NCBI GenBank assembly: GCA_027624075.1
Contig: JAQBUH010000005.1
Location: 13,198-77,197, forward strand
DNA: 64,000 nucleotides
Direction of reading: 5' to 3'
Origin: Chloroflexota bacterium
GTDB taxonomy: Bacteria > Chloroflexota > Dehalococcoidia > Lucifugimonadales > Lucifugimonadaceae
This document shows, one piece after another, positions 702 through 4,742 of this stretch; the first letter of the stretch is position 1; each line of letters opens with the position of its first letter. The position numbers and the translations under genes were made by a program. The notes under the pieces are model-generated. The model did no database searches. It saw only the letters and a list, made by a program, of their open reading frames with translations, and had not been told where the DNA came from.

Positions 702-1877
702 ATGCTCCGGACCTGGAGCATCCTGTTGCCCTCCCTCGATCCAGTAAGTAATTTGCCTGATTCTGTGCCCGGGACCGGACATGACACGAACGCGTCCCGG
801 GTTTTAGCGCCAATTGGCTGGGACTCGACTCGGGTCGCCGAGTTTGCGCCATACGCCGCCGCAGGAATGCAACCCGGCAGGGTTGCGCGCGTCGATGGAC
901 TGTCGGTCATGCTCATCACGGCGGACGGGACCACCCGTGCAGAAAGTTCGACGGAGCTGCAGTCCGCGGCTGAGACCGCCGAGGCGTTGCCTGCCACAGG
1001 AGACTGGGTCGGGTTCAGCGCCCGGCCTTCGCACAACACCGACCTGATCGAGGTGTTGCTGCCGCGCAGTTCTCAACTCACCCGCACCCGGCAGGTCTTG
1101 AAATCCGCTATCGAGCGTCAGATTGTTGCGGTGAACCTGGACGTTGTGTTCATCGTCCATGCGGCGAACAACGTAAACCTGCGGCGGCTGGAACGAGAGG
1201 CCACGCAGGTGGCGGCGAGCGGGGCGCGGGTAGTCATCCTGCTGAACAAGGCTGACCTTTCCGGCGACATGGACCAACTGGTCTCCGAAGCTCTTGTCTC
1301 CGTGCCGGACGTGACCGTGCATCGCGTAAGCGGCGTCACCGGAGAGGGCGTCGAGGAGCTGGCCGCATATGCCCGCCCTGACAGGACGGTGGCATTCATC
1401 GGGGCGTCTGGCGTTGGGAAGTCAACGCTCATCAACCGCCTGCTCGGCCGGGAGGCCATGGACACGGGCGCGGTGAGGGAGGACGACCAGCGAGGCCGCC
1501 ACACGACGACGACCCGACACCTGTTGCCGCTCGATGGTGGCGGTGCGCTGATCGACACGCCAGGGGTGCGGTCGCTTGGCCTGTCGGATGCCGGCGAGGG
1601 CGTGGAGACGGTGTTCGATGACGTCGCTGCGCTGGCGCTCAAGTGCCGCTTTGCAGACTGCTCACATTCCGGCGAGCCTGATTGCGCTGTGCTTGAGGCT
1701 ATCCGCCGCGGCGAGCTGGCGAGAGCACGGCTGAACTCGTTTAAGAAGCTGAGCCTGGAGACGGAGTTTGCCGAGTCGAAGTCGGACGTGCGCCTGCGTC
1801 AGGCCAGGCGGGACCTGTGGAAGGCGAGAGCGAAGCGTGCACGGCAGAGGACGGACGCAGAGCAGAAACTCGACTAA
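702..1877 (+). CDS. rsgA: ribosome small-subunit-dependent GTPase A
   Basis: Circularly permuted GTPase motifs LLNKADL, GASGVGKSTLINRLLG and DTPGVRS. C-terminal zinc knuckle CRFADCSHSGEPDCAV. Start may be a little downstream. Confidence 0.9.
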   Translation: MLRTWSILLPSLDPVSNLPDSVPGTGHDTNASRVLAPIGWDSTRVAEFAPYAAAGMQPGRVARVDGLSVMLITADGTTRAESSTELQSAAETAEALPATGDWVGFSARPSHNTDLIEVLLPRSSQLTRTRQVLKSAIERQIVAVNLDVVFIVHAANNVNLRRLEREATQVAASGARVVILLNKADLSGDMDQLVSEALVSVPDVTVHRVSGVTGEGVEELAAYARPDRTVAFIGASGVGKSTLINRLLGREAMDTGAVREDDQRGRHTTTTRHLLPLDGGGALIDTPGVRSLGLSDAGEGVETVFDDVAALALKCRFADCSHSGEPDCAVLEAIRRGELARARLNSFKKLSLETEFAESKSDVRLRQARRDLWKARAKRARQRTDAEQKLD

Positions 1878-1981: not shown

Positions 1982-2109
1982 CCCGGAACGTACTTCGTGT
2001 CCGGCTCAAACGGGTAGAGCGGCTTGCGGCGCCGGTTGTACGTGAAGTAGGAGAGGTCGGCGGTCGTCACACCAGGCGTGTTGACCAGGATGACCTCTCC
2101 TGCGATCAG
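1982..2109. repeat. direct repeat copy 1: orphan duplicate of the last ~42 codons of the M81/MlrC gene (minus-strand remnant ..KYVPGQ*, stop 1975-1977)
   Basis: Matches 3157-3284 at a constant offset of 1175 bp, with 4 mismatches by my count (2071, 2074, 2098, 2108). Still translates on the minus strand to IAGEVILVNTPGVTTADLSYFTYNRRRKPLYPFEPDTKYVPG. Confidence 0.9.
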
Positions 2110-3146
2110 TCACTATCCGGAAGTTTCCTTAGAAGAGACATCAGATCAAAAAGCCGCTTATTCTCTGTAGTTGTTGGGAAGTCTCTGAAATGCATTAAGC
2201 TGTTCCGTATGTTGAGTGCCCAATCTAATTCAGCATGCAATATTATTCGGTCGCATTTAGTCCCTAACCAATCCCAGCTGAACTGAGACTGCAATAATCG
2301 AATCATCTCGCCAAAACTTAACTCAGAAATCGGCAAAGTCTCATTAGCGGTGTCTTCAGATCTGAGCGCGTCATGCAATTCTTTTGGAGAGAATTTGGTG
2401 GCTATCATTCGTCCTAATCTGTTTTCTATTTCTTCCAGACGTCGAAATGGGCCTACAAGACGTGCAAAATCGGTGGCGATGTCATGAGTTGTGACTATGC
2501 CTTTGATCAGACCGTTTTTGTCAATCACTACTGCAACATTGCGCTCTCCCATAATGCTCAGAGCCTGCCCGACCTCCGTGTCAGACGGTACCGAATAGTT
2601 CTCTTGGTCTATGCAGTCTTTAACCGTCTGAGGTTTTTCATGCCAAAGTTTTGACACCACTGTCTTTAAGGAGATAATACCCACATATTTACGATGCCAA
2701 TCTTCAACAACTAATTGACTATAGTCATGAAGAAGCATTTCTGTGAGAGCGTTATCGAGAGGATCGTTCACCAGCACACAAGAAATAGATTGATCTTCTG
2801 GAATCAAGTCAGCAATTTTATACTCAGATATCGACGGTAGTTCACTGACCCCCTCAGATTCGTTTGAAGGTGATGATTCCACAGATAGTTGCGCAGACGG
2901 GATTACTGGTGAACTTTTCAGAGAAAAACGGATCATCGGACGATAAAGATCGGTATTTGAGGTCAGGGCAGGAGTGGCAATGAGACCGAGTTTAACTAGC
3001 GCATCGTTTACCGTATCAACCGATGAACCGCGGCGTCGCTGGTATCCGAATTCCGCAAGTACATTCACGAACATACGCCATCTGTTTGCGCCTGATTCAA
3101 GATCGGACTTAATGGTCTTTAGATATTCGATACCATTTTCAGCCAT
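2106..3146 (-). CDS. CBS-pair protein with C-terminal HEPN-like (Swt1-type, Rx4H) domain; putative ligand-regulated RNase
   Basis: 346-aa ORF that fills a visibly AT-richer block. Two CBS-like repeats at about aa 108-232 (..YSQLVVEDWHRKYVGIISLKTVV.. and ..RNVAVVIDKNGLIKGIVTTHDIATDF..). C-terminal helical region with motif IRNSLMH (R314-H319, nt 2190-2207). ATG lies 3 nt after the upstream stop. Confidence 0.75.
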   Translation of the reverse strand: MAENGIEYLKTIKSDLESGANRWRMFVNVLAEFGYQRRRGSSVDTVNDALVKLGLIATPALTSNTDLYRPMIRFSLKSSPVIPSAQLSVESSPSNESEGVSELPSISEYKIADLIPEDQSISCVLVNDPLDNALTEMLLHDYSQLVVEDWHRKYVGIISLKTVVSKLWHEKPQTVKDCIDQENYSVPSDTEVGQALSIMGERNVAVVIDKNGLIKGIVTTHDIATDFARLVGPFRRLEEIENRLGRMIATKFSPKELHDALRSEDTANETLPISELSFGEMIRLLQSQFSWDWLGTKCDRIILHAELDWALNIRNSLMHFRDFPTTTENKRLFDLMSLLRKLPDSD

Positions 3147-3149
3147 TGT

Positions 3150-4742
3150 CTAACTCCCCGGAACGTACTTCGTGTCCGGCTCAAACGGGTAGAGCGGCTT
3201 GCGGCGCCGGTTGTACGTGAAGTAGGAGAGGTCGGCGGTCGTCACGCCCGGCGTGTTGACCAGGATGACCTCGCCTGCGATCGGCTGGTATGCGGGCCGC
3301 GGGGACACGACGCCCTTCGCAACGACGATCTGGTAGTGCTCGGGGATGATGCCGGCCGCGTACATGCCGTACCGGGACGTGTTTCCGGTACGTCTGCTGT
3401 TCAGGAAGAGAGTGTGGCCGTCAGTGGTATCGAGCCGCACGGACACGCCCGCGTCATAGAAGCGGTAACCGCCATGGGTCGCGCCGAAGTCCTCCCAGTC
3501 ACCGTCGATGATCGCCCTTACTTTCCCTGTGACCTGGACAGGCTTCCCGTGCATGTTGTCCGTCTTTGCGCCAACCTTGAGCGTAACTTTGGCGCCCACT
3601 CCGGCTGCGACGCACGCCTCAACAGACTCAGGGTCGTAGAGCGACTGCAGCAGCGACTTCACGCCCATCTTCTGCGCCGCGGCGAGAATGAAGGTCGAGT
3701 CTGCGGATGAGCCACCGCCGATGTTGTCTCCAACGTCCATCAGGACTATCGGGCCTGTGCTGGGTGCTTTTCCGTCAGCCGTCTCGGCGGCAGCCGGCGC
3801 CGCAAGCGCTGTGCCGTCCATCGGCACCTCGACCCAGTCACCAAGCCTGCGAGGCCCGCGGTAGCGCTTCTGGGCGGTCTCAAGCGCATCTTTGATCGAG
3901 GAGACCGGCGTGTTCAGCGCCTCGCGGTGCTTCCAGGCCCGCTCGGCCATCCAGATAGCGGTCTCTTTCGCCAGTGCCGGGTTGTTGTCCGTGATGGCGA
4001 TCCAGCTCATCCCCATCTCGGCCACGTCCGAGTACGGGTAGCCTTCGGCTGTGCTTGTGTCCAGGACTCCGGGGCGCTTCAGGGCCTCGATCGAGTCTGC
4101 GACGATCGTCTTCATCGGCTCCTCGCCGGTGAACTGGCGGACGATGTTCACGACCATCGGCGGCATCTCTATCCACTGTGTCGGCTTGATCTCACCCTTC
4201 ACGGTGCGGTAGATCAGCTCGGCGCACTTGTAGCCGCGCGGCTTGGGGTCGAGGTGCGGGTTCGTGCGCCAGACGACGCAGACATCGGTGTTCGCGACGA
4301 CCGCCTTCGAGACGTTTGCGTGCATGTCCAGCGTGATTCCAACGGGCACGTTCGGGCCAACGATCTCCCGGACAGCGCGAGTGAACTCGCCGTCCATGTC
4401 AGGGAACTCCTCGGACACTGCTGCGCCGTGGTTTGGGAGCAGCACGGCGTCCCACGGTCCCTGGACGCGGAGCATCTGGAACATCTCGGCGGTGATGCGG
4501 TCGTATGCGTCCTTCGTGATGGTGCCGATCGGCCCTGTCTGCGCCCACATCAAGGGGACCGCCTCGAAGCCGAAATCCCTCGCCGCCTGCAGGTAGCCCG
4601 CGGTCGTGTAGAGAGCGCTCTCGAACTGCTTGACGATCTCATCGCCTCGCAGCAGGTCCGCCATCTCGAACTGGTGGTAGTCGGCAGGGACGCGGGAGAA
4701 GGTGTTTGTCTCGTGAGAGATGCCGAGGATAGCGAACCGCAT
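3150..4742 (-). CDS. M81 family metallopeptidase (MlrC/microcystinase C-like)
   Basis: N-terminus MRFAILGISHETNTFS is typical of the DUF1485/MlrC family. Length 530 aa. Confidence 0.8.
   Translation of the reverse strand: MRFAILGISHETNTFSRVPADYHQFEMADLLRGDEIVKQFESALYTTAGYLQAARDFGFEAVPLMWAQTGPIGTITKDAYDRITAEMFQMLRVQGPWDAVLLPNHGAAVSEEFPDMDGEFTRAVREIVGPNVPVGITLDMHANVSKAVVANTDVCVVWRTNPHLDPKPRGYKCAELIYRTVKGEIKPTQWIEMPPMVVNIVRQFTGEEPMKTIVADSIEALKRPGVLDTSTAEGYPYSDVAEMGMSWIAITDNNPALAKETAIWMAERAWKHREALNTPVSSIKDALETAQKRYRGPRRLGDWVEVPMDGTALAAPAAAETADGKAPSTGPIVLMDVGDNIGGGSSADSTFILAAAQKMGVKSLLQSLYDPESVEACVAAGVGAKVTLKVGAKTDNMHGKPVQVTGKVRAIIDGDWEDFGATHGGYRFYDAGVSVRLDTTDGHTLFLNSRRTGNTSRYGMYAAGIIPEHYQIVVAKGVVSPRPAYQPIAGEVILVNTPGVTTADLSYFTYNRRRKPLYPFEPDTKYVPGS
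3157..3284. repeat. direct repeat copy 2 (functional 3' end of the M81/MlrC CDS)
   Basis: See copy 1. Lies inside CDS 3150-4742. Confidence 0.9.

Follow-up and report, generated by a model that had tools for sequence, protein, structure and literature searches.

The closest described relative of the gene analysed in this study is DS-11, a one-protein anti-phage system of Escherichia coli in which CBS and HEPN domains are combined and which was reported together with the DefensePredictor method (DeWeirdt et al., bioRxiv 2025; Science 2026; PMC13092281). In the parts of that report drawn on here, each of the substitutions Y157A, R330A, and H335A abolishes DS-11 defence, residues 252-359 are assigned by HHpred to the Pfam family PF18731 (HEPN_Swt1) with a probability of 0.98, and the AlphaFold3 model of the homodimer has an interface predicted template modelling score (ipTM) of 0.59. 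Earlier, Anantharaman et al. (2013) had listed the architecture 'CBS and HD (alr3009), active' under the Swt1-like HEPN domains and had proposed a nucleotide-responsive regulation of RNA stability by CBS-HEPN proteins (PMC3710099). The present analysis concerns a gene of the same kind in a stretch of 64,000 nucleotides (nt) from a Dehalococcoidia (Chloroflexota) bacterium (assembly GCA_027624075.1, contig JAQBUH010000005.1); this whole stretch is referred to as the window. The gene is likely a divergent member of the DS-11 family that encodes a CBS-gated HEPN ribonuclease (RNase) for defence, that sits where an MlrC-like gene ends, as a cassette comprised of the open reading frame (ORF) only, and that is probably expressed by read-through.

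2106..3146, minus strand: DS-11-like CBS-HEPN gene, 346 amino acids (aa) plus stop (stop codon 2106-2108), from the ORF list, NCBIfam NF053863, and BLASTP against DS-11

The ORF is present exactly as described in the first-pass annotation of the window, which had proposed that the product joins a CBS pair as a sensor to a HEPN RNase in a self-contained defence singleton. That proposal matches DS-11, of which the window protein is a full-length homologue retaining the essential residues. The NCBIfam model NF053863 ('DS11_antiphage, CBS domain-containing anti-phage protein') aligns with aa 29-331 of the window protein over profile positions 3-296 of 305 (E 4e-54), and a collinear BLASTP alignment links aa 7-333 to residues 11-349 of DS-11 (WP_000257686.1, 365 aa, taken from Table S8 of PMC13092281) with 28% identity and an E value of 1e-28. 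This alignment takes in the N-terminal region as well as the motifs 'HDYSQL' and 'IRNxxMHF', and it places Y142, R314, and H319 of the window protein at the positions of Y157, R330, and H335, the three residues required for DS-11 defence. Additionally, DS-11 is 45-54% identical to several homologues of the window protein (e.g., P0013); the two proteins therefore belong to one family and are linked by intermediates. The first-pass annotation held that this architecture lacked experimental characterisation, a view that has been overtaken: a computational survey had listed the architecture in 2013, and experimental validation followed in 2025-2026.

The two proteins share the same order of parts (N-terminal domain, linker, CBS pair, and Swt1-like HEPN domain) in a single-gene arrangement, together with the motifs DYSQL, GIVTT.D, and IRN..MHF. 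They differ in that the host of the window gene is a member of the Chloroflexota (Dehalococcoidia) rather than E. coli, in the low identity given above, in substitutions of the window protein's own at W160, R245, Y281, and R311, and in that the window gene forms an ORF-only cassette outside any defence island, with a predicted activity.

The family around these two proteins is large and diverse. A search of 5.8 billion proteins returned one near-identical partial copy, from a metagenome-assembled genome of a 'Chloroflexi bacterium', and all other matches were at most 35% identical. With HMMER, 779 clusters were matched at E <= 1e-10 among 1.84 billion cluster representatives; most of these have lengths of 330-375 aa and align over their whole extent, with 33-36% identity for the best non-self match. 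Conservation was counted in an alignment of 52 members (A1), within which D141, Y142, S143, Q144, L145, V147, G216, I217, V218, T219, G279, R314, N315, and H319 are invariant (52/52), T220, D222, F234, W291, M318, and F320 are nearly so, and position 241 is always acidic (E/D). The window protein keeps all 14 invariant residues, including those of the catalytic and ligand sites. Three architectures were found across the family: an N-terminal domain, CBS pair, and HEPN domain, as in the window protein and DS-11; the same parts with a RAMA domain ahead of them; and a CBS-HEPN form of about 262 aa that consists of these two parts only.

The product has three parts, namely an N-terminal domain conserved in the family (about 80 aa), the CBS pair, and a helical C-terminal domain. 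An AlphaFold2 model of it that was built from A1 has a mean predicted local distance difference test score (pLDDT) of 84.9.

2907..3146, minus strand: N-terminal family domain (aa 1-80), from AlphaFold2 secondary structure (pLDDT about 90); aligns with the DS-11 N-terminus
2826..2906, minus strand: disordered Ser/Pro-rich linker (aa 81-107), pLDDT below 50 at aa 82-106; length varies in A1
2469..2825, minus strand: CBS pair or Bateman module (aa 108-226), from two stretches of Pfam PF00571, Foldseek, and invariant columns
2721..2723, minus strand: codon of Y142, equivalent to DS-11 Y157 (predicted adenine contact), from the alignment to DS-11
2109..2468, minus strand: helical C-terminal domain (aa 227-346), Swt1-like HEPN by family-level evidence, from AlphaFold2 helices and the match of the consensus to PF18731
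2190..2207, minus strand: R314-N-S-L-M-H319, HEPN Rx4H catalytic motif at the C-terminus of helix 300-318, with R314, N315, and H319 in 52/52 members

For the CBS pair, two CBS-like repeats had been recognised in the first-pass annotation at about aa 108-232, and Pfam PF00571 was matched there in two stretches (E 3.8e-14, 53.2 bits against a cutoff of 24). The fold gives the same answer, with Foldseek placing aa 108-230, approximately, on solved CBS pairs; in the search of the full model against the Protein Data Bank (PDB) only Bateman modules were returned, with E values down to 1e-8 and template modelling (TM) scores of 0.77-0.89 on the target, including 2p9m, 3kpb, 5ks7, and 7msu. Many of the matched structures hold AMP, ATP, S-adenosylmethionine (SAM), or cyclic di-AMP (c-di-AMP), and a phmmer search of the PDB with the window protein likewise returned CBS proteins only. 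The ribose-phosphate motif of CBS domains has the form G-h-h-(S/T)-x-x-(D/N). The second repeat carries G216-I-V-T-T-H-D222, which fits this motif and is invariant or nearly so across the family, and the equivalent stretch of the first repeat, G156-I-I-S-L-K-T162, is without the acidic residue.

For the C-terminal domain, the first-pass annotation had pointed to the string RNSLMH as a HEPN Rx4-6H signature, and this string (aa 314-319, nt 2190-2207) is the sole Rx4-6H match in the 346-aa protein. The AlphaFold2 model predicts helices at 220-251, 254-261, 278-294, 300-318, and 326-341, so that R314-H319 would close one helix, with a loop and the last helix (326-341) coming after it, a placement as described for HEPN domains. 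The family consensus matches PF18731 over profile positions 14-105 of 115 (E 2.2e-5, 25.1 bits against a gathering threshold of 27.5), with HEPN_RiboL-PSP as its second match, and a weak PF18731 match was seen in 11 of the 52 family members. The resemblance to Swt1-type domains, which the first-pass annotation had suggested, is thereby borne out, in agreement with the HHpred assignment published for DS-11 and with the filing of CBS fusions under Swt1-like HEPN in 2013. HEPN is the best-supported assignment of the C-terminal domain because of this family-level evidence and the mutational data for DS-11; for the window protein itself it is a prediction from homology.

The N-terminal domain had been thought possibly to resemble sigma region 1.1, for which no search gave support; it is instead a conserved domain of the family. 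The AlphaFold2 model predicts helix 2-17, strand 23-26, helix 29-32, helix 40-52, and strands 55-58 and 71-76, an alpha-beta-alpha-alpha-beta-beta order that is winged-helix-like, and a turn of the form 'F/W-G-x-x-R-R' is conserved at aa 33-38, with R38 kept in all 43 family members that have the domain. No significant Pfam match was found for this domain, which is possibly a winged-helix-like sensor or nucleic-acid binder. Its consensus also matches Pfam DUF7187 (E 0.0055) and the phage family phrog_10412 (E 0.0019), in each case weakly and over nearly the whole length of the short profile; neither match was used as an assignment, and a small domain shared with phage proteins is possible from these sequence comparisons.

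Other related systems include the Swt1-like HEPN proteins with CBS fusions (e.g., alr3009 and Pelobacter gi 118580987; PMC3710099), in which a CBS sensor is likewise joined to a catalytically competent Rx4-6H HEPN domain and for which RNA cleavage in response to nucleotides is predicted. Those proteins were predicted only and some have an extra HD domain, whereas the window protein has no HD domain and has the N-terminal family domain of about 80 aa; the comparison to alr3009 is by description. The RAMA-CBS-HEPN proteins of Actinomycetes share the same core and the same invariant residues, and differ from the window protein by an additional N-terminal RAMA domain (PF18755, a modified-DNA reader) of about 110 aa. 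Members with RAMA include P0012, P0031, and P0046 (Amycolatopsis, Nocardia), in which overlapping DUF4357 matches were also seen. A further parallel is found in Csm6/Csx1 of type III CRISPR systems, where a CARF domain is combined with HEPN; here the likeness is one of logic only, a nucleotide-binding sensor placed over a dimeric HEPN RNase with collateral RNA cleavage. Unlike Csm6/Csx1, the window protein has a CBS pair and not CARF, and its gene has neither a CRISPR locus nor a cyclic-oligoadenylate synthase beside it. The sequences are unrelated beyond the HEPN superfamily, so that mode and not membership is compared.

The gene was also described in the first-pass annotation as an isolated foreign cassette, and the composition agrees: the ORF has a GC content of 43.9%, compared with 63% in the window, and forms the only GC trough across the 64 kb. 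At third codon positions the GC content (GC3) is 41% in the cassette ORF vs. 77-84% in the two flanking genes. As had been stated, no partner ORF lies beside the CBS-HEPN gene according to the ORF list of the window, the cassette being a single ORF, and scans for tRNA and Rfam RNA genes gave nothing relevant accompanying it. The layout of the insertion is set out below.

702..1877, plus strand: host RsgA GTPase gene, convergent; adjoins the MlrC-like gene in related genomes
1982..2107, minus strand: left repeat copy, an orphan 3' fragment with the ancestral end ...VPGQ* (stop 1975-1977)
3150..4742, minus strand: host MlrC-like peptidase gene (DUF1485 and MlrC_C), stop 3 nt before the cassette ATG
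3154..3159, minus strand: GGGGAG, a Shine-Dalgarno-like hexamer that precedes the cassette ATG by 7 nt, read from the sequence
3157..3282, minus strand: right repeat copy, the functional end of the MlrC-like gene (...VPGS*)

The cassette is bracketed by a direct repeat of 126 bp, the longest repeat in the window, the two copies of which are identical at 123 of 126 positions with an identical core of 89 nt. What is repeated is the stretch of the final 42 codons of the MlrC-like gene. In four related genomes (L003-L006; MlrC 82-89% identical) the site is empty, and the MlrC-like and RsgA genes are only about 30-60 bp apart. The end ...VPGQ*, which in the window is found on the orphan copy, is common to the orthologues at L004, L005, L006, L079, and L080. 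The three internal differences between the copies are all synonymous third-position changes, a pattern that with n = 3 is only suggestive. The unique inserted DNA spans 2108-3156 (1,049 bp), of which the ORF with its stop codon takes up 1,041 bp, and the full inserted unit of 1,175 bp is comprised of the ORF and 126 bp duplicated from the 3' end of the host gene. Both junctions are precise: the cassette borrows the opening two bases of the left repeat to finish its TGA stop, and the other junction reads GGG AGT TAG ACA ATG (3144-3161, minus strand) vs. the ancestral GGC CAG TAG, a change that creates GGGGAG. The other neighbours of the cassette are an enolase-superfamily gene and a Na/Ca exchanger.

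Several observations weigh against the assignment of this gene to DS-11-type defence. The NF053863 score of 183.8 bits is below the equivalog cutoff of 260, making the window protein a homologue and not an equivalog by the curated threshold, and PADLOC 2.0, the library of which predates DS-11, gave no match for it. At E <= 10, neither the window protein nor its isolated C-terminal domain matched a Pfam HEPN family, PF00571 being the only match of the full protein, and a profile of the C-terminal domain alignment gave 0 matches against PDB sequences. A Foldseek search of the PDB with an AlphaFold2 model of the C-terminal domain only (pLDDT 85.7) returned nothing significant (best E = 2), with the HEPN structures 1wwp, 6m6u_H, and 8xeh_B appearing only among weak matches (TM about 0.33-0.36). 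The proposed HEPN C-terminus thus stands on the family-level evidence and the conserved R and H, and is not matched by Pfam HEPN or significantly by Foldseek for the window protein itself. With W160L, R245G, Y281M, and R311L, the window protein departs, alone or almost alone, from the family at near-invariant positions, which fits the sub-threshold NCBIfam score; these substitutions could reflect an altered ligand or regulation, or a relaxed constraint. The cassette is located between housekeeping genes and not in a defence island, and neither a correctly oriented sigma-70-like promoter immediately ahead of it nor a terminator-like site was found. For DS-11 itself, no mechanistic study later than the DefensePredictor report was found in the literature.

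Some of these observations would fit an acquired DS-11-type gene that is now a decaying relic, either inactive in its host or drifted to another ligand or regulation. The outlier substitutions (W160L, R245G, Y281M, R311L, and P322D), the score below the equivalog cutoff, the missing promoter and terminator, and the distance to the nearest non-self relative (33-36% identity) would all be accommodated in this way. However, the reading frame has stayed open for 346 codons although its composition is foreign and AT-rich, none of the 14 invariant residues has been lost, AlphaFold2 folds all three domains confidently, and the Shine-Dalgarno site stands at the correct spacing, which together make decay an unlikely account. 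Because no promoter or terminator-like site of its own was seen at the cassette, the CBS-HEPN gene is likely expressed by read-through from the MlrC-like gene.

The surroundings of the family members bear on a second alternative, in which the protein is a housekeeping regulator of RNA stability responding to nucleotides and not an immune protein. Six neighbourhoods of homologues were sampled.

L081: Nocardia locus, ambiguous
L082: methylase, HipA and HTH, integrase
L083: MmeI/Eco57I, NERD-kinase, GmrSD_N gene, Macro
L084: HNH, UvrD, Zeta toxin, methylases, ResIII
L085: DndB, HATPase_c_3, radical SAM
L086: UvrD-PDDEXK, methylase, ResIII

Five of the six look like defence or mobile islands, and no conserved partner gene recurring in most of the six was seen. 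Two further family members are prophage morons on (pro)phage contigs of IMG/VR.

L087, 7857-9002: moron between tail-terminator and baseplate genes
L088, 7956-9068: moron between anti-repressor/HNH and ParB/replication-initiation genes

The first-pass annotation had reasoned that homologues placed mainly in conserved metabolic operons would argue against a defence role; most of those sampled were found in defence islands or prophages, and the proposal withstands this check. The housekeeping alternative draws on the 2013 proposal that CBS-HEPN proteins regulate RNA stability (PMC3710099) and on the position of this copy among metabolic and housekeeping genes, co-oriented with the MlrC-like gene and 3 nt downstream of it. 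Against this stand the absence of the gene from the same site in the four related genomes, its foreign composition, the homologues in defence islands and prophages, and the fact that the tested family member, DS-11, defends against phage; a housekeeping role is accordingly judged quite improbable. Within the metagenomic defence island of L083 (8169-11044), the end of the GmrSD_N (DUF262) gene was also observed to overlap the start of the homologue by 4 nt, which suggests that a family member can share an operon with a component of a modified-DNA-dependent nuclease.

The repeat could in principle have misled the assembly, as the window is from a metagenome scaffold and the 89-nt identical core is common to both repeat copies; a chimeric join, for example of a free 1,175-bp circle and an empty chromosomal site merged across that core, would give the same layout. 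Only one other assembly has the gene, GCA_027592805.1 (L001), and there too the cassette runs into the orphan copy and on to RsgA. Its contig stops within the cassette, at window position 2951, and its differences from the window are confined to the 30 nt next to the contig end; being otherwise identical, it may not be an independent witness. On the other side, both assemblies join the 3' end of the cassette to the orphan copy and RsgA, the junctions are functional to the base (shared stop codon, 3-nt spacing, and Shine-Dalgarno site), and the three differences between the repeat copies together with the differing gene ends could be phased by ordinary 150-nt reads. An assembly artefact is thus very improbable. 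A toxin of a toxin-antitoxin or addiction module of the HEPN-MNT type is scarcely credible, for although HEPN domains are common toxins and HepT structures are among the weak Foldseek matches, no MNT or other small partner ORF is adjacent (the neighbours being MlrC-like and RsgA), the domain is Swt1-like and not MNT-associated, and DS-11 acts as a single protein.

For the preferred reading, a DS-11-family defence protein acquired with the cassette, a mechanism can be proposed. The CBS pair would bind an adenine-containing nucleotide through Y142 of DYSQL and through G216-I-V-T-T-x-D222 of the second CBS repeat, contacts that are suggested by the AlphaFold3 model and the mutant of DS-11 and by general knowledge of CBS domains. 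Binding or release of this ligand during infection would alter the pairing of two protomers, and the two Swt1-like HEPN domains would meet so that R314, N315, and H319 form a composite RNase site, as predicted from what is generally known of HEPN domains and from the loss of defence in the R330A and H335A mutants of DS-11. Cleavage of RNA would then halt phage replication, probably at a cost to host growth. The N-terminal domain may provide a further input as a trigger-sensing or targeting module, which is speculative. On this reading the gene entered the Dehalococcoidia lineage as a cassette with nothing but its ORF, inserted where the MlrC-like gene ends, and its expression probably makes use of the Shine-Dalgarno site that arose at the junction. 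Ligand gating, activation through the dimer, RNase activity, and anti-phage function are thus predicted properties of the window protein.

The layout of the 1,175-bp unit is as expected from a single-crossover (Campbell-type) integration of a circle of this size, and also as expected of the attL and attR sites of an element mobilised by a recombinase. No integrase or recombinase was found within the inserted element, which has one ORF only; this result covers the element and not the remainder of the window. Around the six homologues no comparable direct-repeat bracket was seen; the duplication is therefore not a family trait. An exact search of metagenome contigs of the Joint Genome Institute (JGI) with the repeat core returned 0 matches, and hence no empty-site or alternative-cargo alleles of the same species there. 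A recurrent insertion hotspot was considered and rejected, as the orthologous MlrC loci with other downstream content (L080 and L053) carry genes of ordinary GC and no duplication. At L080 (7859-8716; MlrC 87% identical), a 285-aa gene of ordinary GC lies between the MlrC-like and RsgA genes without a flanking duplication; ordinary rearrangement, too, therefore alters which genes are found at this junction. In several marine Dehalococcoidia (Dehalococcoidia/SAR202 loci L025, L043, L048, L049, L051, and L052), tblastn showed the MlrC-like gene as 2-3 tandem paralogues, with the further matches immediately downstream of the first copy.

A more far-reaching idea, which must be called doubtful, is that the 1,175-bp unit represents a minimal defence cassette without a recombinase of its own, moving in and out by recombination across a duplicated gene end, repairing its target gene, and borrowing both the transcription of that gene and a ribosome-binding site made at the junction. 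Independently of this, and with the same reserve, the outlying DS-11 relative in the window may respond to a ligand other than that of the E. coli protein.

Overall, these results extend the DS-11 family, which is validated by experiment, to the Dehalococcoidia and Chloroflexota, a clade with few characterised immune systems. The gene is a clean natural case of a defence gene outside a defence island, the situation that DefensePredictor was designed to catch, and the ORF-only cassette with the duplicated end of a host gene is its least ordinary feature. For the family as a whole, the alignment marks residues that are invariant throughout (DYSQL, GIVT, G279, and RN..H) together with the acidic E/D241. 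Combined with the conserved N-terminal domain, which sometimes has a RAMA reader ahead of it, these residues provide concrete targets for studies of the ligand and the trigger.

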